DNA from: Rhizobium sp. Q54
Lineage (GTDB): Bacteria > Pseudomonadota > Alphaproteobacteria > UBA828
Length of the DNA stretch: 64,000 nucleotides
NCBI GenBank assembly: GCA_945902735.1
Contig: CAMDNF010000002.1
Coordinates: 1,400-65,399 of the forward strand
Reading direction: 5' to 3'
In this document: in pieces, positions 3,961 through 57,315 of the stretch
How the letters are laid out: every line of letters begins with the position of its first letter
How positions within the stretch are numbered: the stretch's first letter is position 1
Program-made: the position numbers and the translations under genes
The notes under the pieces: generated by a model
What the model saw: only the letters and a program-made list of their open reading frames with translations
Database searches by the model: none
What the model was told of the DNA's origin: nothing

Positions 3961-4599
3961 GTGTATCCTGATCTAATGAGGGGAACGACGCTAGCAAGCC
4001 TGGCCCAAGAGCTCAATTCACGCCACGTGGCACGCACCGAACGCGGGCGTGTTTTGCCGCCGCTTCTACTCATGACCGACGAGGCCCGCTTGCCAGACCC
4101 GTGCGCCGCCGCCGACCGCCTACCGGCGGGGGCCGGGATTATCTTACGCGCCTATGAGGGGCCCGCGCTCAGGCGCTTGGCCTACGCCCTTGCCGAGATC
4201 GCGCGGCAACGGAGGCTCGTGCTCTTGATTGCGCGCGATGCCGAATTGGCCGCGGAAGTGGGGGCCAATGGGGTGCATTTGCCGGAGGCCCTGGCTCACC
4301 TTGGGGCCGCTATGCGGCGCCGCGCCGATTGGTTGATCACCTGCGCCGCCCATTCGCTCCCCGCGCTGCATATGGCCGCCCGTGTCGGCGCCGATGCCGC
4401 GCTGCTCTCGCCGGTCTTCCCGACCGCGAGCCACCCCGATCGGCCAGCCTTGGGACCACATTATTTTGCCGCGCTCGTGGGACGCGCGGGCCTCCCGGTA
4501 TACGCCTTGGGCGGGATTAGCGAGACCAATGCGCCGCTGTTGCTGGCCAGTGGCGCGGTCGGCCTTGCGGGGATCAGCGGGTTTTCAGCGGGCGCTTAG
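3961..4599 (+). CDS. Thiamine-phosphate synthase (ThiE/TenI-family) protein
   Basis: TMP-TENI-like motifs …[10 protein letters not shown]…[12 protein letters not shown]…PVYALGGI…; the start is uncertain (GTG at 3961 or ATG at 3976). Confidence 0.6.
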
Positions 4600-6483
4600 C
4601 CCGAAATGTTTTTCGACATGAGCAACCAACGCAGCCACGCTCGCCTCGATCGATTGCGTGGCGGTGTCGATCACGAGATCAGGTTTGTCGGGCGGCTCAT
4701 AGGGGGCCGAGATGCCGGTAAACTCGCGAATTTCACCGGTACGCGCGCGGCGGTAAAGCCCCTTCGGGTCGCGCGTTTCGCACACGTTGAGCGGCGCATT
4801 GATGTAGATTTCGTGATACGCGCTTTGGTCGATACGCTCGGCCGCCGCGCGGGCCCGTTCGCGATCGGCGCGATAGGGTGAGATGAAGGCGGAAATTACC
4901 AACATGCCGGCATCGGCAAACAGCGCGGCAACTTCGCCGACGCGTCGGATGTTTTCTGCCCGGTCCTCGGGCGCGAAACCGAGATTGGCATTGAGGCCTG
5001 CGCGAACATTATCGCCATCCAGCACATAAACTTGATAGCCGCGACGGAACAATTCAGCCTCGACCTCGATCGCGATGGTCGATTTGCCGGCGCCTGAAAG
5101 CCCGGTGAGCCAGATGACGCCACCTTTGTGCGTGTTGCGTCGCGCGCGCTCGGTTCGACCGATGCGATGGCCGACCGCTTGAATATTGCTCGAGCGATCG
5201 GTAATCAGCGCGCGTTGATCGGGATAACCCTCCATGTTGATCTGGCCGCCGCCGGCGATGTCATCACCATCAACGAGCACGAAGCGGCCGGTGCGGGGCA
5301 AAGCGAGGTAGGTGTCGAAGGCCAGCATGGCCGGGCTTCTGAGCACAACCTCGGCAATGCCATTGCGCTCGACAAAGCCCGGCGGTTCGCTTGGAACGCC
5401 ATTTGCTTCAAGCACATCAATGTCAATCACGCGTTCGATCGACTGCACTTCAACCGGCACTTCGCGCGTGGCGAGTCGAAGCTTGTAGCGTCTGCCTGCT
5501 TCAAGCGGCGAGCGGCCGAGCCAAAAAATTGTCGCGCGGAACACATTGCTTTCGATCGGCGGGTGCGCGGCATGACTGGCGAGCCCACCGCGCTCGATGA
5601 AGAGTTGCTCGTCGAGTTGAATGCCGATCGATTCACCGGCCTCCGCATGATCCCGCGCCGGCGCATGCCAACGTTCGATGCTTGTTACACGCGCGGTTTT
5701 GTTCGATGGCGAAAAAAGCAGCGTGTCACCTTTTGCCAGACGCCCGCTTTCAATGCGGCCGACGAGAATGCGCCGCTCGTCAAAATGATAGACATCTTGA
5801 ATTGGAAAGCGGAGCGGCGCATCGGGCTGCAATGCAATCGATGTTAGGGCATCGAGTGCTTGAATGAGCGTTGGGCCCTTGTACCAAGGCGTCGCGGCCG
5901 AGCGCGCGATGAGATTGTCGCCGCCGCGCGCCGAGGTCGGCACGATTTGGGCTACATGCAGACCAAGCAATTTCAAATAAGCCGCGATCTCGTCGCCAAC
6001 CGCGCGAAACCGCGCCTCATCGAAGTTGATGAGATCTATTTTGTTGATCGCGACAATGACCTGATTGACGCCGATCAGACTCAGCAGATAGCCGTGACGG
6101 CGCGATTGCTCGCGCACGCCCTCCTTGGCGTCGATGACCAAAAGCGCGGCATCGGCGCTCGAGGCGCCGCTGACCATGTTCTTGATGAATTCCCGATGAC
6201 CGGGCGCATCGACCACGACATAGCGTCGCGCGGGCGAGGCGAACCAGACATGCGCGGCATCGATCGTGATGGTTTGATCGCGTTCGGCTTGAAAGGCATC
6301 GAGCGCGAAGGCCCATTCGAACGGCATGCCGCGCTTCTCGCTCATGGCTCGAATGGCCTCGAGCTTGCCCTCGGGCAGGGCCCCGGTATCGGCAAGAAGG
6401 CGGCCGAGCAACGACGATTTGCCATGATCGACATGGCCGACGATGACGAGCCGGAAAGGAGGTTTTGTTGGCGATGCGCTCAT
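4585..6483 (-). CDS. cysNC: Bifunctional sulfate adenylyltransferase subunit 1 / adenylylsulfate (APS) kinase (CysN/CysC fusion, NodQ-like)
   Basis: N-terminal GTPase ([25 protein letters not shown]) and a C-terminal APS-kinase P-loop ([11 protein letters not shown]…YVLDGDNVR). ATG at 6483 overlaps the cysD stop. Confidence 0.9.
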
Positions 6484-7296: not shown

Positions 7297-8133
7297 TTAT
7301 CGACCTTCAGGCAGATAGTTGAAGCGTTTCATTTGCTCGCGGTGGCGTTTTACCAGGCGGTCGATTTGCGCGGCGGATAATTTCTCTCGCCATTCGCCCG
7401 ACTTGCCGGACCGGAAGAAACGATCTTGCACCGGCGTGCGCTCGACAAAGCCGGTTTTTTCCTCCTGCCCGCGTAGGGCGTCGAACGAAGAGAAGCGGAT
7501 AGCTTTTTCGAGACGCGCTTGATCGGGCGGCACGCCGAGAAATTGCGCAATGGCACCGAAATACCGCGCGGGGTCGGCTTGGAGATCTTCATAGCGTACC
7601 ACGTAAAGGGCCGGGCTTGGCGTTTGTGTCCAGCTTTTCACATGGGTCGACCAATCGCTTTGGTGTTCGGGTACGTGGGTTGCGCTCGCCGGCGTTTCAA
7701 ACCCGACGCGGCCCATGAGTTCGATGATGTCGTCAAACGAAACACCGAGATGATGTGCATAAGACAACGCGACATCGAGCGGGTTGCGCACGACATAGAT
7801 CGCGCCGGCGGTGAGCTCGAGCGTAATCATGCTTACACCCGCGACCGCGATTAGCGCGTTGTGGGTTTTTACCATGACGGTGTTGGGCGAACTTTCAGCG
7901 ATCAGACGATGCACGTGCGGGCGGAGCCTGGTGAGATCGGCGAGTGAGAGTGCCGTTGGGGGCCGCGGGTCGAGACGGGCATACCAATGCGCTTGCGAAT
8001 CACCGACCGTGAGTGCCGACATGCGATTGATCTCAAACGGCGCATCGGGATTCGACAGCAGATTATGAAGAAACGCGCGGACCCAGGTGTTGCCCGATTT
8101 CGGATAGGACGCGAGCCAAAGAAGATTAGCCAC
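7297..8133 (-). CDS. PAPS-dependent sulfotransferase (Sulfotransfer_1, StaL/Teg-like)
   Basis: 5'-PSB motif LWLASYPKSGNTW and 3'-PB motif VVRNPLDVALS. ORF 7297..8226, but the GTG at 8133 is the likely start because upstream sequence overlaps the paralog ending at 8139. Confidence 0.8.
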   Translation of the reverse strand: MANLLWLASYPKSGNTWVRAFLHNLLSNPDAPFEINRMSALTVGDSQAHWYARLDPRPPTALSLADLTRLRPHVHRLIAESSPNTVMVKTHNALIAVAGVSMITLELTAGAIYVVRNPLDVALSYAHHLGVSFDDIIELMGRVGFETPASATHVPEHQSDWSTHVKSWTQTPSPALYVVRYEDLQADPARYFGAIAQFLGVPPDQARLEKAIRFSSFDALRGQEEKTGFVERTPVQDRFFRSGKSGEWREKLSAAQIDRLVKRHREQMKRFNYLPEGR

Positions 8134-8138
8134 GGGGT

Positions 8139-9005
8139 CTAAATTCGGTAGCCGAATCTGGCCATCTGCGCGCCATGGCGGCCGACAATCTGCGCGGCCT
8201 GAGCCGGGGTTAGTACATCGCGCCAACCGTCCGCTTTGCCTTGGCGAAAAACTCTCTTCTGCGCCACTGTGCGCTCACGAAAATCTTCCTCAGCCTCTTG
8301 ACGGCTTAGTTGATCGAACGACGAAAACTCGATCGCTTTCATGAGTCGTTCCCGCGGCGGATCGAGCCCAAGGAAACGGCATAGAGCCCCGAATGCCTCA
8401 ACAGGCTGGGCCATCAAATCTTCGTACCGGACGACATGGAGGCCTGGGTGACTCACCTTGGTCCAACTATCGACATGGAGCGACCAGCTGCCGCGATATT
8501 CGTAAATGAACTTCTCGGTGTTCTCGGTCTGAACGTTTTGACCCAGTCGCATAATCGCTTCATCGATCGACATGCCGCTATGATCGGCATAGGAAATGAC
8601 CACGTCGAGGGGATAGCGCACGACGTAAATTGCCACGCCGGTATGCTCCATCGTAATCAAAGGCGTGCCGCGGTCGACAATAAGGGCGTTGTGGGTCTTA
8701 ACGAAAACGGAATCAGGATAAGTTCGCGTCAGCCTTTCATGAATTAAGGGGCGCAATTTCGCGATTTCATCCTTTGAAAGACTGTCTGCGCGTCGAACCG
8801 ACAATTTTTGATCGGATTCGTCAGCTTCCGCGCGGCTATCCAACACAGCCTGACACCAATCCGCATTCGAATCTTGGTGACAGAAGCGCACAAGGTTATT
8901 CAGCGGCACTGGCCGCTCTGGGTTCATGAAAAGATTGTGCAAGAACGCACGGAGCCACGTATTGCCGGATTTCGGATAGCTCGCGAGCCAAAGAATTTTT
9001 CCCAT
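8139..9005 (-). CDS. PAPS-dependent sulfotransferase (Sulfotransfer_1, StaL/Teg-like), tandem paralog
   Basis: Begins MGKILWLASYPKSGNTWLRAFLHNL; 3'-PB-like VVRYPLDVVIS. Same strand as, and directly upstream of, the first sulfotransferase, cysD and cysNC. Confidence 0.8.
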   Translation of the reverse strand: MGKILWLASYPKSGNTWLRAFLHNLFMNPERPVPLNNLVRFCHQDSNADWCQAVLDSRAEADESDQKLSVRRADSLSKDEIAKLRPLIHERLTRTYPDSVFVKTHNALIVDRGTPLITMEHTGVAIYVVRYPLDVVISYADHSGMSIDEAIMRLGQNVQTENTEKFIYEYRGSWSLHVDSWTKVSHPGLHVVRYEDLMAQPVEAFGALCRFLGLDPPRERLMKAIEFSSFDQLSRQEAEEDFRERTVAQKRVFRQGKADGWRDVLTPAQAAQIVGRHGAQMARFGYRI

Positions 9006-9390: not shown

Positions 9391-10548
9391 TTAGAACGAC
9401 AGGGACGAGCCGATCATGAAGCTCGTGTAAACGTTGTCCAACGCGCCAGCCGTCTCATTTTCGAAATCGCCATGGTCGATCTGCGCCTGAATGCTCACGC
9501 CCGGCCCAAGGATATAGGTGCCGTTGAGCGCCATGATATCAAACGCCAGATCGTCGACTGCCGCCACGGTCGCTCCTTCGATCTCGGCCCGGCCATATTG
9601 AATGCCGATGCCCCACATGGCGTCCCAATAGGCCACGCCGATATCGAAGTCCTTACGATCACGACCGGGGCCAACTAGGCCTGTCACCGGCGTTGCATTG
9701 GCGACCAGGTCAGCATCGAGATAGCCGCCGCCGACTGAGAACTTCCCGAATGTGAGCGTGCCACCCACATTAAACGAGGCGGGCGAGTCTTCGCAATTAA
9801 CTACCGTGGGCGTCGCACCGCAACGATCGAGGTTGTAGGTCTCGTAACCAGCGGAGGCGCGGAGCTTAACGGCGCCGAAATCGTGATCAAACGCCGCGGC
9901 GACCGACAGCTGGTCGAGCAGCTGGCCGTTCACTTCGCGAGCGTTGGCACCATATTGGCTCTGGCCCTGATCTGACGGCGCATAACTCGCCGCGAAGCTG
10001 ACGCCACCGAATGAAGGCGAGAAATACACGATCTTCTGCGAATCTTCCGAGCCCAAACCATCGTTATAGGTGCGGACGTTGTAGATGTTTGAGCCGTTGC
10101 CCGGATTGCCGAAGATGAAGAACGGCGTGTTGACACCGAAAATGCCCGAGCCGCCCGGCGCCCATGAGATGAACTCTTGGCGCGCGCTCTCGGTTGCACC
10201 AACGCGGATTTGACCGAAATTGCCGCGGAAGAACACGAAGCGTTCGTCCATCGATTCGGAGTCGTCGCCGGTGGGGTTGCCTTCGATCACGGCCTTGAAG
10301 CCCGCGGTCAGGCCGTTATCGAACGTGGCGCTGCCGCCAATGTTGATTTCGACGTCTTGGCCCATCGCGCTTGAATTGAAGTTATTGGCGTATTCGTTAT
10401 CATTGCTCTGTTGGTCGATGATCGCGAACGCGCTCTGATAATAGCCACCGACGCTGACCGCAATCGGCTCGTCTTTGGCCTGCGCGGTGCCACCGGCAAT
10501 CATGCCCGCCGCTACAAGTGCGGTCGAACCCAAAAGAATCTTCTTCAT
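9391..10548 (-). CDS. Outer-membrane porin (alphaproteobacterial Porin_2/RopA-like β-barrel)
   Basis: Signal peptide MKKILLGSTALVAAGMIAGGTAQA, a Gly/Asn/Ser/Tyr-rich β-strand composition, and a C-terminal …SSLSF aromatic terminus. Confidence 0.8.
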   Translation of the reverse strand: MKKILLGSTALVAAGMIAGGTAQAKDEPIAVSVGGYYQSAFAIIDQQSNDNEYANNFNSSAMGQDVEINIGGSATFDNGLTAGFKAVIEGNPTGDDSESMDERFVFFRGNFGQIRVGATESARQEFISWAPGGSGIFGVNTPFFIFGNPGNGSNIYNVRTYNDGLGSEDSQKIVYFSPSFGGVSFAASYAPSDQGQSQYGANAREVNGQLLDQLSVAAAFDHDFGAVKLRASAGYETYNLDRCGATPTVVNCEDSPASFNVGGTLTFGKFSVGGGYLDADLVANATPVTGLVGPGRDRKDFDIGVAYWDAMWGIGIQYGRAEIEGATVAAVDDLAFDIMALNGTYILGPGVSIQAQIDHGDFENETAGALDNVYTSFMIGSSLSF

Positions 10549-52447: not shown

Positions 52448-53842
52448 ATGGCGCTGAACGATGCCCGCGGCGAACCCACCAGTAGCAGCAACCACGCCGC
52501 GCTCGATGGTTTTGAGACAGCCTTGGCCGAGCTCAATGCCTATGTCGGTGATCCGCTCGCCACCATCAATGGCGTGATCGAGGCCGATCCTTCCTTTGTG
52601 CTCGGGCCTATATTGAAGGCACATATTCTCTCGCTCTCGACCGAGCGTGCCGCCGAACCTGAATTGAGACGTACGGTCGAAGCCGCCGAGGCGCTCGACA
52701 ACAACGCCAATGCGCGCGAGCGCGGGCATATCCGCGCTGTGCGCGCCTGGCTCGATGGCCAATATCACGAGATGCCCAATCTTTTGGAAAAGGTGTTGAT
52801 CGACCACCCGCGCGATCTATTGGCGCTGCAAATCGCGCATATCGGTGACTTTTTTGTCGGCGACGCGCTGAATTCGCGCGATCGCATCGCGCGCGTGCTG
52901 CCGCTGTGGGACGATCGGGTGCCGGGCTATGGTTATGCCCTCAGCATGCACGCCTTTGGCCTCGAAGAGATGGGCGATTATGGCGCGGCCGAGAAAGCGG
53001 CGAAGCGCGCCATCGCGCTCAACCCGAAAGATGCCTGGGGCATCCACGCTTTTGCCCATGTGTGCGAAATGCAGGCGCGTCACGCCGATGGCGTTGCCTG
53101 GCTCGAAAGCCGGGAGAAGGATTGGGCGCCGGGTAATTTTTTTCAAATCCACAATTGGTGGCACTTGGCGCTCTATTATCTCGATCGCGGCGATATCGCG
53201 AAGGTTCTGGCGCTCTATGACGGGCCGATTCGGAGCGGCCACTCCAAAATCGCGCTCGATATGTTGGATGCCGCGGCGCTTTTGTGGCGCCTCCATCTGC
53301 TCGATGTCGATTGCGGCGCGCGCTGGGACGAGCTTGCCACGCTTTATTCGCCATTGACCGATGATGCCTATTACGCCTTCAACGACATGCACGCGATGAT
53401 GTGCTTTACCGCGAGCGGGCGCGCGGCCGAGGCCGCCAAATTGCTCGCCGCGCAAGAAACCCTCGCGCGCGAATGGTCTGGCACCAATGCCATGATGACG
53501 CGTGAAATTGGCTTGCCTGTGTGTCAGGCGATGCATGCCTTCGGTCATGGCGATTATGCGAAAGCGGTCGATCTATTGTTGAGCCTTCGCTCGAAGGCCA
53601 ATCGCTTCGGCGGCAGCCATGCGCAACGCGATGTGTTGACGCAAACGCTGATCGTCGCAGCCTTGAAAAGCGGTCAACACCGGCTCGCGCGCGCGCTTGG
53701 CCATGAACGGATCGCCTTGAAGCCCGCGAGCGCGAGCGGTCATGGTTTTCTCGCGCGGGCTTTGGCGGCGCTCGGCGATCAGGCCGGTGCCGCGCGAGAA
53801 GAAGCCAAAACGGCCTCGCTGCGCGGCCCGATCAAACACTAG
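52448..53842 (+). CDS. TPR-like protein (TTC38-family)
   Basis: 464 aa, helical-repeat composition, no catalytic motifs recognised; sits between hisF and hisE. Confidence 0.55.
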   Translation: MALNDARGEPTSSSNHAALDGFETALAELNAYVGDPLATINGVIEADPSFVLGPILKAHILSLSTERAAEPELRRTVEAAEALDNNANARERGHIRAVRAWLDGQYHEMPNLLEKVLIDHPRDLLALQIAHIGDFFVGDALNSRDRIARVLPLWDDRVPGYGYALSMHAFGLEEMGDYGAAEKAAKRAIALNPKDAWGIHAFAHVCEMQARHADGVAWLESREKDWAPGNFFQIHNWWHLALYYLDRGDIAKVLALYDGPIRSGHSKIALDMLDAAALLWRLHLLDVDCGARWDELATLYSPLTDDAYYAFNDMHAMMCFTASGRAAEAAKLLAAQETLAREWSGTNAMMTREIGLPVCQAMHAFGHGDYAKAVDLLLSLRSKANRFGGSHAQRDVLTQTLIVAALKSGQHRLARALGHERIALKPASASGHGFLARALAALGDQAGAAREEAKTASLRGPIKH

Positions 53843-54606: not shown

Positions 54607-54666
54607 TCCGATTTGACGAACGCGCCTAGGCGCGCTCAAACAGGCGACGCAAAAAGGAAACCCGCC

Positions 54667-56178
54667 ATGAAGGTTGCGTTGCCCACGCCTGAGGAAATCG
54701 CACACATCGCCGCGCAATGCGGCTTTCACCTGACAGCCGACGAGATCGCGGCCTATCGCGGCCTGATGCCGATTTACATCGCGAGCTATAATTACGTCGA
54801 TGGCCTGGCCGAGGATCCGCCGCGCGTGAAATACCCGCGCGGGCGAGGGCACCGGCCAGCTGCGGCCGAGAACAAATATGGCGCCTGGGCCTGGAAGGCG
54901 CGGGTCGAAGGGGCGGCGAATGGTCCGCTCAAGGGCAAGACGGTCGCGTTGAAGGATAGCGTGATGCTCGCCGGCGTGCCGATGATGAATGGCGCGCGCC
55001 CGCTCGAAGGCTTCGTGCCGGACCATGACGCGACGGTGGTCGAGCGCCTGCTCGATGCCGGCGCGACGATTTTGGGCAAGGCGGAGTGCGAGGCGCTTGG
55101 CCTTTCCGGCGCGAGCCACACGAGCCCCTTCGGCCCCGTGCATAACCCGCGCAAATTCGGCTATTCGGCGGGCGGCTCGTCCTCCGGTTGCGCGACGCTG
55201 GTTGGGCTCGGCGAGGTGGATATGGCGCTCGGCGGCGATCAGGGTGGCTCGATCCGCATGCCGGCGTCCTATTCCGGCGTATGCGGCATGAAGCCGACCT
55301 ACGGCCTCGTGCCCTATACCGGCATCATGCCGATGGAAATCACGGTCGATCATGCCGGGCCGATCACAGCGACCGTGCGCGACAATGCGCTGATGCTCGA
55401 GGCCATCGCGGGGCCCGATGGCATCGACCCGCGCCAGCGCGATGTGATCGTGCATCCTTATGCCGCGATGCTCGATGGTGGGGTGAAGGGCTTGCGCATC
55501 GGCGTCGTGAAGGAGGGCTTCGGATGGCCGACCTCGGAGCCCGATGTCGATGACAGCGTGCGCCGCGCCGCAGAATTGTTCCGCAAGCTCGGCGCCAATG
55601 TGCATGAGATTTCAATTCCGCTGCATCGGAATGGCATCGATATTTGGCAGCCGGTCGCGCTTGATGGAATCATGGCGACCGCGATGTGGGGCGAGGGCCA
55701 GGGCGCGAGCCGCCTCGACCGCTACGCGGTCGGTCTCATGGCGCGCATGCGCGATTGGCCCAAACGCGGCGATGAGCTGCCCCACACGGTCAAAATGATG
55801 ACCGTGCTCGGCACCTATATCAAACAACGCCATGGCCTGCATTTTTATGGCAAGGCGATGAATCTGTGGGACCGTTTGCGCGGCGCCTATGATGCGGCGC
55901 TGAACGAGTGCGATCTGTTGCTGATGCCGACGCTGCCCTTGAAGGCAACCAAGCTGCCGACGGCTGATGCCGGCCCGACCGAAATCGTGCGCCGCGCGCA
56001 TGAGATGCTCTTGAACGTAGCGCCGTTCGACGCGAGCCATCATCCGGCGATGTCAATCCCGTGCGGCCTGAGCGACGGTCTGCCGATCGGGGTGATGCTG
56101 ATCGCCAAGCATTTCGACGAGCCGACGATCTATCGCGCGGCTTATGCGTTCGAGCAGGCCGAGGATTGGACGCGCTAA
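54667..56178 (+). CDS. Amidase (amidase-signature family)
   Basis: AS-family signature …GGSSSGCATLVG… with the Ser-cisSer-Lys context; ATG at 54667. Confidence 0.85.
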   Translation: MKVALPTPEEIAHIAAQCGFHLTADEIAAYRGLMPIYIASYNYVDGLAEDPPRVKYPRGRGHRPAAAENKYGAWAWKARVEGAANGPLKGKTVALKDSVMLAGVPMMNGARPLEGFVPDHDATVVERLLDAGATILGKAECEALGLSGASHTSPFGPVHNPRKFGYSAGGSSSGCATLVGLGEVDMALGGDQGGSIRMPASYSGVCGMKPTYGLVPYTGIMPMEITVDHAGPITATVRDNALMLEAIAGPDGIDPRQRDVIVHPYAAMLDGGVKGLRIGVVKEGFGWPTSEPDVDDSVRRAAELFRKLGANVHEISIPLHRNGIDIWQPVALDGIMATAMWGEGQGASRLDRYAVGLMARMRDWPKRGDELPHTVKMMTVLGTYIKQRHGLHFYGKAMNLWDRLRGAYDAALNECDLLLMPTLPLKATKLPTADAGPTEIVRRAHEMLLNVAPFDASHHPAMSIPCGLSDGLPIGVMLIAKHFDEPTIYRAAYAFEQAEDWTR

Positions 56179-56741
56179 TCGATCAGATGGTCGGATTGGT
56201 TTCTATGGTCAGACACGCATTCGATGCAAGATACATGCTGCCCAATATCGTAAAGAATGTAGCACTCCCCCGGCTCTGTGTTCCTGAATCTTTTTATGTG
56301 TTCGACCAATTCGTATAAAATCTCTCCTGACTTTAAAGTTGTCTTGTGATGAGATTCGTATCCCGGCGCTGAAAATACGAAAAACTTGAGGGGCGCCTTG
56401 CCGATCAGAAGCTTATTAAAATCCTTCATTATTTCGTCTTTTTTTCGCGCCAGCTCTATTTCACAAATCAATAATACATCACGAAATATGTCACCTTTAG
56501 ATCGTGCCCACACAACGTCAAATAAGAACTCGCGCTTACCTCTTTCGCCCGATGCAAAAAACTCTGAATCGTTAGGAGAATGGTCTCGGAATACGCCCTT
56601 AATTTCTGAGGTGTTCGCTTTTGTTTTATCGAGCGCTGATATGATGGAATTTATATTAGAAAATAATCCCTCTCGCCGCCACGAAGTCAAAGTTAAAAAT
56701 TCCAGATCTTCGTCCTCGTACAGATCGTCATCGTCGTCCAT
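56175..56741 (-). CDS. Orphan hypothetical protein encoded on an AT-rich islet (poly-acidic N-terminus; possible restriction-endonuclease-like core, unverified)
   Basis: 188-aa ORF uninterrupted through a ~40% GC segment, against ~65% in flanks. N-terminus MDDDDDLYEDEDLEF. Segment …GERGKREFLFDVVW…DVLLICEIELARKKDE… weakly resembles a PD-(D/E)xK β-β-α core. C-terminal C/H cluster C-x10-H-x2-C-x2-C-x3-H. No family recognised by eye. Confidence 0.55.
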   Translation of the reverse strand: MDDDDDLYEDEDLEFLTLTSWRREGLFSNINSIISALDKTKANTSEIKGVFRDHSPNDSEFFASGERGKREFLFDVVWARSKGDIFRDVLLICEIELARKKDEIMKDFNKLLIGKAPLKFFVFSAPGYESHHKTTLKSGEILYELVEHIKRFRNTEPGECYILYDIGQHVSCIECVSDHRNQSDHLID

Positions 56742-56817
56742 CTAATTGCTCCACTAAGATGCGAATGCTCCCCGCTGCTCCAGTTAGCGTATCTTGCGAG
56801 ACAAGTGACGAACAACG

Positions 56818-57315
56818 ATGAATGCAATGCAGCTGCAAATCCGCCCCGCCACACGCGCGGACGACGAAGCGGTTTGGCGCGTGATCGAACCGATGATCCG
56901 CGAGGGCGAAACCTATCCGCTGCCGCACGACATGACGCGGGACGCCGCGCTCGCGCATTTCCACCAGCCGGGTCATGAGATGTTCGTGGCCGAGGTCGAT
57001 GGCATCGTTCTCGGCACGTATTATTTGCGGCGCAATACCGGGGGTGGCGGCAGCCATGTGGCGAATTGCGGCTATGTCACCTTGCCAGCGTCGCGCGGGC
57101 TTGGCGTCGCGCGCGCCATGTGCCTCCATTCGCTCGATCACGCAAGAACGCACGGTTACCGTGCGATGCAATTCAATTTCGTGATCAGCACCAACGAGGC
57201 CGCCGTGCATTTGTGGCAGGCCTGCGGCTTTGCCATTGTCGGGCTCTTGCCCGGCGCGTTTCTCTCTCCCCGTCATGGCTATGTCGATGCGCTGGTGTTT
57301 TATCAGGCGCTATAG
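56818..57315 (+). CDS. GNAT-family N-acetyltransferase
   Basis: …VTLPASRGLGVARAMCLHSLDHARTHGYRAMQFN…. Confidence 0.75.
   Translation: MNAMQLQIRPATRADDEAVWRVIEPMIREGETYPLPHDMTRDAALAHFHQPGHEMFVAEVDGIVLGTYYLRRNTGGGGSHVANCGYVTLPASRGLGVARAMCLHSLDHARTHGYRAMQFNFVISTNEAAVHLWQACGFAIVGLLPGAFLSPRHGYVDALVFYQAL

Follow-up and report, generated by a model that had tools for sequence, protein, structure and literature searches.

BamHI and OkrAI (Pfam PF02923; PDB 1BAM, 3ODH) are type IIP restriction endonucleases of 213 aa and 194 aa, respectively, whose catalytic sets (E77/D94/E111/E113 and E71/D86/E99/E101) end in a glutamate that is known at the last catalytic position only in BamHI isoschizomers and BtsCI (PMC3025578). 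NucC (PDB 6P7P, 7ZGV) is a DNase activated by cyclic triadenylate (cA3) in the cyclic-oligonucleotide-based antiphage signalling system (CBASS) and in type III CRISPR (clustered regularly interspaced short palindromic repeats) systems. PD-(D/E)xK domains or partners also occur in larger systems, such as CdiA-CT EC869/Bp1026b with contact-dependent growth inhibition (CDI) delivery and an immunity protein, HamA of Hachiman with the HamB helicase, and Can2 with its CARF sensor. HigB, the toxin of toxin-first higBA type II toxin–antitoxin (TA) modules, is an RNase of the RelE fold. In this study, we compared these systems with an AT-rich islet in a 64-kb stretch of DNA from Rhizobium sp. Q54 (contig CAMDNF010000002.1, positions 1,400 to 65,399; hereafter the window, whose own numbering is used), in which a single 188-aa open reading frame (ORF) of predicted BamHI-like fold interrupts a housekeeping operon. 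In the reading that we favour, the gene was acquired and encodes a toxin or defence factor, namely a DNA endonuclease that is Mg2+-dependent and stands alone; we give this reading as a whole a probability of about 0.5.

Single-gene insertion at an amidase–GNAT operon junction

The islet (56179-56817) has a GC content of 0.433 versus a window average of 0.616. None of the 640-bp segments in the 64 kb has a lower value, and the islet falls approximately 5.7 standard deviations (sd) under the mean of these segments (mean 0.616, sd 0.032). The abrupt AT-rich drop described in an initial annotation made from the sequence was thus confirmed, and the background of ~65% GC given there is corrected to ~62%. 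The ORF itself has a GC content of 0.422, and that of its third codon positions is 0.47 versus 0.74-0.81 in three neighbouring genes. The islet and the interrupted operon comprise the following features.

54613..56178, plus strand: amidase, upstream half of the interrupted operon (Pfam Amidase, 1.2e-89; orthologs 77-95% identical in four metagenome-assembled genomes, MAGs)
56175..56178: left insertion boundary, where convergent stop codons overlap in CTAA (ORF TAG at 56175-56177, minus strand; amidase TAA at 56176-56178, plus strand)
56175..56741 (stop codon included), minus strand: inserted ORF, 188 aa, ATG start, intact; uncurated family, predicted BamHI-like restriction-endonuclease fold
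56742..56817: 76-bp spacer between the divergent ATG codons of the ORF and the GNAT gene (56818)
56818..56830, plus strand: right insertion boundary, approximate, from the junction alignment with relatives
56818-57315, plus strand: GNAT acetyltransferase (Pfam), directly after the amidase in the related loci L012 and L013
57331-58440, plus strand: FmdA/AmdA-type amidase (Pfam), downstream half of the operon together with GNAT

Use of the amidase as a probe recovered 79 related loci. The gene order hisE-HIT-amidase-GNAT is common to four alphaproteobacterial MAGs, whose amidases are 95, 86, 82 and 77% identical to that of the window (best segment), and an FmdA and/or ComM-like gene lies downstream in each; the neighbours of the islet in the window are likewise the amidase, GNAT, FmdA, a ComM-like Mg-chelatase, HIT and his genes. 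In L012 and L013, both from other species, the amidase and GNAT genes share the tetranucleotide GTGA, in which the stop of the first overlaps the start of the second; this indicates that the two are translationally coupled. In L011 (~4510-4690), the junction is filled by ~165 bp of G/C-rich non-coding sequence with paired CCTCCCCC...GGGGGAGG palindromes that looks like a REP/MITE-like element (repetitive extragenic palindrome or miniature inverted-repeat transposable element). The closest relative, L014 (amidase 95% identical), carries at exactly the same junction a MAPEG-family gene of normal GC content (7676-8077, plus strand; 133-aa membrane protein, Pfam 3.4e-18). Across five related genomes, the amidase/GNAT junction thus takes four forms: it is coupled in two genomes and occupied by repeat filler, the MAPEG gene or the nuclease gene in the others. 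The different cargo at the same stop/start junction indicates a hot spot of recurrent insertion or replacement.

Homology between the window and these relatives stops directly after the amidase stop and restarts ~13 bp into GNAT; the initial GNAT codons (MNAMQ) are non-homologous to those of the relatives, and homology is back near 56831 (…ATCCGCCCCGC…). A hidden Markov model (HMM) of the protein family described below gave no match in the 79 amidase loci of other species and just one in the window. The islet is therefore a lineage-specific insertion at the amidase–GNAT operon junction. Horizontal acquisition, as proposed in the initial annotation, is supported by the gene-less relatives in which the coupled junction is uninterrupted. 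The annotation had named conserved synteny at normal GC content as evidence against acquisition, and its absence among these loci supports acquisition as well.

The overlap of the amidase and ORF stops was as previously described, and so was the lack of a flanking tRNA, integrase or direct repeat: no tRNA was detected in the 64-kb window, no integrase near the islet, no target-site duplication at the islet junctions, and only short direct or inverted repeat matches, at chance level, at the islet boundaries. The minus-strand ORF is intact, as annotated, and is accompanied by an antisense 119-aa ORF (56386..56745, plus strand) that lies within the nuclease gene, has no independent support and is most likely a shadow ORF of the AT-rich coding sequence. 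The upstream gap that had been proposed to hold the gene's own promoter measures 76 bp (~75 bp in the annotation) and contains a Shine-Dalgarno sequence (GGAG, minus strand, 56749-56752, 7 nt before the ATG); a promoter scan detected no consensus promoter in it, with totals at chance level, and terminator matches were likewise at chance. A weak terminator-like hairpin of 6 pairs, 3 of them G-C, followed by ATTGGTTTCT, lies at 56179-56194 (plus strand), directly after the amidase stop and within the 3′ end of the inserted gene; such hairpins are counted at chance level. If it worked as a terminator, transcription from the amidase promoter would no longer reach GNAT and FmdA.

Fourteen contigs from metagenomes or MAGs encode the exact protein. 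Its surroundings on all of them are the same housekeeping genes (his genes, hslUV, gshB, rsmI), their DNA is at least 99.96% identical, and together they represent one nearly clonal species. All 14 were found via the protein itself, and a comparison of single-nucleotide polymorphisms between islet and flanks was uninformative because of the near-clonality. A metagenome scan with the amidase 3′ end for empty-site alleles gave 0 matches. One short conspecific contig, L009 (L009:1-419; ERZ27280328 k141_66384), matches the window only to ~97 bp into GNAT and then runs in frame into unrelated sequence that is molybdopterin-oxidoreductase-like by eye; a chimera of the assembly is the probable cause, a real rearrangement being less likely.

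A precise insert without integrase, target-site duplication or inverted repeats, of which a single gene takes up nearly the whole, is also what a free-standing, homing-endonuclease-like selfish gene would leave. Such a gene would cut a long, rare site at the uninterrupted amidase/GNAT junction and be copied in by repair from an allele that carries it; as the insertion destroys the target site, the host would be immune without a methyltransferase or an antitoxin. PD-(D/E)xK homing endonucleases exist, e.g. I-Ssp6803I. Against homing, the gene was not met at this junction in a second genome, the species yielded no empty-site allele (14 conspecific contigs, found via the protein), and the unrelated cargo of the relatives (MAPEG, repeat filler) suggests a generally permissive hot spot rather than a target specific to the nuclease. 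The contexts of the homologs, which bear on this explanation as well, are given below.

A rare protein family with an invariant acidic triad

The window protein generated no match in Pfam, NCBIfam, PADLOC or PDB sequence searches. A word-indexed search of 5.8 billion proteins returned only the protein itself, and its profile version 8 unnamed proteins. By exhaustive phmmer against 1.84 billion cluster representatives, 92 proteins were obtained at E<1e-3 and nine at E<1e-10, almost all of 120-240 aa, with the best non-self match (1.6e-23) showing 50% identity across residues 63-171. The label "orphan" given in the initial annotation thus holds only for word-indexed and curated searches, since exhaustive HMMER finds these 92 remote homologs. 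Two giant "homologs", P0045 and P0070, were rejected as spurious matches to Ig-like repeat proteins.

Fifty-eight of the 92 homologs, 23-41% identical to the query, were aligned (alignment A1). D75, E94 and E96 are invariant across the 58 sequences, and E71, W78, D107, F108, K110, L111 and Y161 are each at least 90% conserved, giving the family signature E-[WF]-L-x-D-x-x-W ... E-x-E-W ... D-F-x-K-L-L. The window copy keeps all three invariant and all seven conserved positions. None of the 58 relatives had a Pfam match or a consistent PHROG or PADLOC match, and the sole source name of family members is "hypothetical protein". No published description of the family was found in full-text literature searches. 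GenBank phages and plasmids gave no match in tblastn with the window protein, and degenerate-motif scans of IMG/VR viral contigs, which are of limited sensitivity, gave only chance matches and no family member. The sequence family appears to be undescribed; the kind of protein, a PD-(D/E)xK nuclease on acquired DNA, is already known.

The N-terminus of the 188-aa protein reads MDDDDDLYEDEDLEF.

56697..56741, minus strand: acidic N-terminal tail, codons 1-15, MDDDDDLYEDEDLEF; predicted disordered (predicted local distance difference test, pLDDT, ~55 for residues 1-20)

Acidic N-termini with a D-[DE]-Y motif followed by (T/S)R(T)..RL are shared by the closest subfamily (P0002, P0003, P0004 and the member in L109), to which a P-x-H-H-x-T loop is also common, and are absent in the wider family of 58 sequences. 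The C-terminal Cys/His cluster that the initial annotation considered a possible metal site has the spacing C160-x8-H169-x2-C172-x2-C175-x3-H179, not C-x10-H at its start; it is not conserved even in the closest homologs and lies in a low-confidence part of the structural model, and for lack of conservation the idea of a metal site there was dropped.

Predicted fold and candidate catalytic core

AlphaFold on the single sequence gave a model with pLDDT 35 that was not usable, and the model described here was obtained with the 58-sequence alignment (pLDDT 83, predicted template modelling score 0.81, 107 residues at pLDDT at least 90). Residues 1-20 and the last 10 are disordered in it, and the remainder is arranged as H27-38, H44-53, E60-63, E76-82, E85-96, H101-113, E118-123, H138-151, E160-165 and E169-174 (H, helix; E, strand). 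The alpha-beta-beta-beta-alpha-beta core of this model is the restriction-endonuclease fold that defines the PD-(D/E)xK superfamily. D75 directly precedes strand 76-82, where beta2 begins, and E94-x-E96 closes beta3 (strand 85-96), so that conserved acids occupy the beta2 start and the beta3 motif as in the superfamily, with E instead of K at the last position. The central segment that had been called loosely PD-(D/E)xK-like is accordingly borne out in its modelled core fold and its invariant acids, with the difference that its motif is E-x-E and not E-x-K.

56412..56531, minus strand: predicted catalytic core, with E71 (56529-56531), D75 (56517-56519), E94 (56460-56462), E96 (56454-56456) and K110 (56412-56414)

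The folds closest to the model are those of type IIP enzymes of similar size, OkrAI and BamHI, together with BstYI and BglII. From the invariant D...E-x-E and the catalytic sets of BamHI and OkrAI (PMC3025578), the site of the family is the rare BamHI-type variant. The product would be a small, stand-alone and probably dimeric Mg2+-dependent DNA endonuclease of the structural branch BamHI/OkrAI/BglII/BstYI/NucC, its metal site being formed by D75 and E94-x-E96, probably with E71. That the protein is a metal-dependent nuclease of some kind is, in our judgement, likely.

Comparison with BamHI and other known systems

As a BamHI query, a sequence identical to 1BAM chain A was used. The BamHI family (PF02923) was not hit in Pfam by the protein or by any of its 58 relatives, and hhalign of the family profile (A1) gave a probability of 1% against the BamHI sequence and 0.2% against a 28-sequence BamHI profile. 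The best hhalign alignment, although non-significant, places E94/E96 on E111/E113, K110-L111 on K126-L127 and the "GE-Y-L-L" strand on "PFIFIGF", which is the register predicted by the fold, and the local strings E-I-E-(12)-N-K-L-L-I-G of the window protein and E-F-E-(11)-N-K-L-L-L-G of BamHI are alike. D75/E94/E96 fit the D/E-x-E pattern and register of BamHI, whereas E71 is off the sequence position of BamHI E77: the first acid stands 4 residues before the Asp in the window protein and 15-17 before it in BamHI/OkrAI. The GGATCC-recognition segments ETGNISSAHR and LTDR, invariant in the BamHI alignment (A4), are absent in the family alignment (A1). Unlike BamHI/OkrAI, the window gene has no adjacent methyltransferase or C-protein, and the closest subfamily of its product carries the acidic disordered N-terminal tail. 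Judged by sequence, with no detectable homology to BamHI/OkrAI and the recognition residues missing, the protein is not a BamHI-family member; judged by the model, it plausibly works like a BamHI-type two-metal nuclease.

The same-sized type IIP enzymes among the closest folds (OkrAI, BamHI, BstYI, BglII), the BamHI-type catalytic motif and the location of two homologs in or beside type I restriction–modification (R-M) loci would also suit a conventional sequence-specific restriction endonuclease, the host being protected by an unlinked or orphan methyltransferase, or cleavage being confined to modified DNA (type IV-like). We regard this as improbable. A type II R-M system calls for a methyltransferase, and none lies within ~10 kb of the window gene; the homologs examined adjoin none either, except type I hsdM of other systems. 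The BamHI recognition segment is missing, no modification-reading domain is present, and, the generic CTAG apart, palindromes show no depletion in the window, a comparison with low power at 64 kb. The size of the protein also bears on homing, since a 188-aa BamHI-like dimer would be expected to read ~6 bp, too short for a safe homing site.

NucC belongs to the same structural branch, and the protein could conceivably be a NucC-like effector switched on by the cyclic-oligonucleotide signal of a CBASS or type III CRISPR system whose genes lie elsewhere. This is very improbable: the protein is ~50 aa shorter than NucC, neither it nor its family matches NucC or any CBASS/CRISPR effector model in PADLOC, no cyclase or CRISPR genes lie within ~10 kb or beside homologs, and there is no sign of a cA3 pocket or of a trimer/hexamer assembly. 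The partners of CdiA-CT, HamA and Can2 (CDI delivery and immunity protein, HamB helicase, CARF sensor) are not present here.

Genomic contexts of homologs

About a dozen homolog loci were surveyed. No dedicated adjacent methyltransferase, cyclase or CARF partner was found at the loci examined, and the homologs are mostly solitary genes. A conserved small upstream partner gene was considered and rejected, as the small ORFs in L091, L092 and L106 are mutually unrelated and look non-coding. Family genes are AT-richer than their hosts in six of the seven homolog loci measured (for example 0.46 vs 0.69, 0.41 vs 0.56, 0.42 vs 0.61 and 0.49 vs 0.63 GC for gene vs host), which indicates that the family behaves as mobile cargo wherever seen.

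Several homologs lie in toxin, prophage or defence surroundings. P0011 (L096:8001-8907, also L097) is part of a two-gene AT-rich cassette with a HigA-family antitoxin gene 14 bp downstream (TIGR02607, 104.6 bits vs a cutoff of 47.7). As in toxin-first higBA modules, P0011 occupies the toxin position, and the cassette looks like a TA module with a BamHI-like protein in place of the usual HigB RNase; the family differs from HigB in its predicted PD-(D/E)xK fold. This was the one homolog with an adjacent antitoxin in the type II TA arrangement. In contrast, the window gene has no co-oriented adjacent antitoxin, and most family members have no adjacent antitoxin. P0008 lies beside a HigB/helix-turn-helix pair, P0002 downstream of a weak MazE/AbrB-like ORF, and P0016 within a Mu-like prophage. 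P0027 (WP_139555997.1, Methylotetracoccus oryzae) is located in an island with type I hsdRMS, VapBC, an HNH gene, Rep_trans, an integrase and a sub-threshold TIR-like gene. P0075 (L110:603-1250) is a chimera in which a C-terminal fragment of a type I R-subunit (residues 1-102; T1RH-like_C, 3.6e-35) runs straight into the family domain without the N-terminal helices; an hsdM fragment lies upstream. The appearance is that of a type I R-M locus in decay, which the nuclease gene has invaded or with which it has fused. The toxin or defence flavour suggested in the initial annotation is therefore matched by homologs in a prophage, a defence/integrase island, a decayed type I R-M locus and a toxin slot before HigA.

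Other homologs resemble the window gene in their placement. P0006 is wedged in, separated by 4 bp from the preceding lipid-A acyltransferase gene and by 5 bp from the convergent queE that follows it, and P0062 adjoins lpxB. The wedged P0006 and the AT-rich close homologs, each at a different housekeeping junction, speak for homing; the members in TA-like, prophage or defence-island contexts speak against it. With the evidence from the amidase/GNAT junction included, we consider homing unlikely, and keep to an acquired toxic or defensive nuclease as the preferred reading.

Proposed role and sparing of the host

In the reading that we favour, a single gene was inserted recently and horizontally into the stop/start junction of the translationally coupled amidase-GNAT(-formamidase) operon, as a member of a rare family whose genes are AT-rich, travel singly on mobile or defence DNA and have no methyltransferase of their own. 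From the modelled fold, the conserved acids and the homolog contexts, we infer metal-dependent cleavage of DNA, and most likely a role as a toxic or defensive nuclease, either a restriction-like or abortive-infection-like effector or an addiction toxin. For the toxin or defence role taken by itself, the balance is close to even, leaning slightly to the doubtful side.

Alternatively, the gene may be a silent or decaying xenogeneic passenger, or its product a non-nuclease with a generic alpha/beta fold, with no current function in the host. This seems improbable given the intact ORF with its good Shine-Dalgarno sequence, the retention of the three invariant and seven conserved family positions in the window copy, and the invariant acidic triad on adjacent strands, which is hard to explain without a metal site. 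The identity of the copy in 14 contigs from several samples also argues against decay, weakly, as the population is nearly clonal.

If the protein is an active nuclease, the host could be spared in three ways. The nuclease may have sequence or modification specificity, on which the palindrome counts given above bear. It may be expressed at a low level, as no promoter was found; the gene is antisense to the operon, and since GNAT and formamidase presumably need read-through, antisense transcription or transcriptional interference could repress it. Finally, the solitary subfamily conserves the acidic disordered tail at the N-terminus, which may be autoinhibitory. On this last possibility, members of the closest subfamily (P0002-P0004, the L109 member and the window gene) might each be a self-contained, restriction-like "toxin plus cis-antitoxin" nuclease made of one polypeptide. 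The tail (DDDDD-Y ... TRT..RL) would act as an intramolecular DNA mimic and, until its removal by a trigger (phage infection or proteolysis, for example), keep the BamHI-like E-x-E nuclease away from the DNA of the host. A lone nuclease gene could then settle at housekeeping operon junctions without a methyltransferase or an antitoxin; alternatively, the subfamily may have spread to such junctions by homing. We offer this proposal for the subfamily as speculation of low probability.

If our reading of the protein is right, it represents a new, rare sequence family of BamHI-like (E-x-E) PD-(D/E)xK nucleases whose lone, AT-rich genes pass from one bacterium to another with no methyltransferase and, in most cases, no antitoxin, which raises the question of how a host tolerates a solitary restriction-fold nuclease. 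It would then be a candidate single-gene defence or toxin module for catalogues, currently missed by PADLOC and Pfam, and possibly a new small nuclease for enzymology. What goes beyond the routine here is the BamHI-type E-x-E site in a solitary gene lacking a methyltransferase, the HigA-paired toxin slot, and the operon stop/start junction, of which this locus is a clean natural example as an insertion hot spot.

Other features of the window

The second-lowest GC stretch of the window (0.50-0.56) contains a sulfotransferase gene (8139-9005, minus strand; PF00685, 1.3e-25) and a Gram-negative porin gene (9391-10548, minus strand; PF13609, 1.8e-34), and may be a further segment that was acquired or is related to the cell surface. 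Within the histidine-biosynthesis cluster, a 464-aa gene without a recorded Pfam match (~52448-53842, plus strand; L001 12900-14294) is flanked by a His_biosynth (hisF/hisA-type) gene and hisE.

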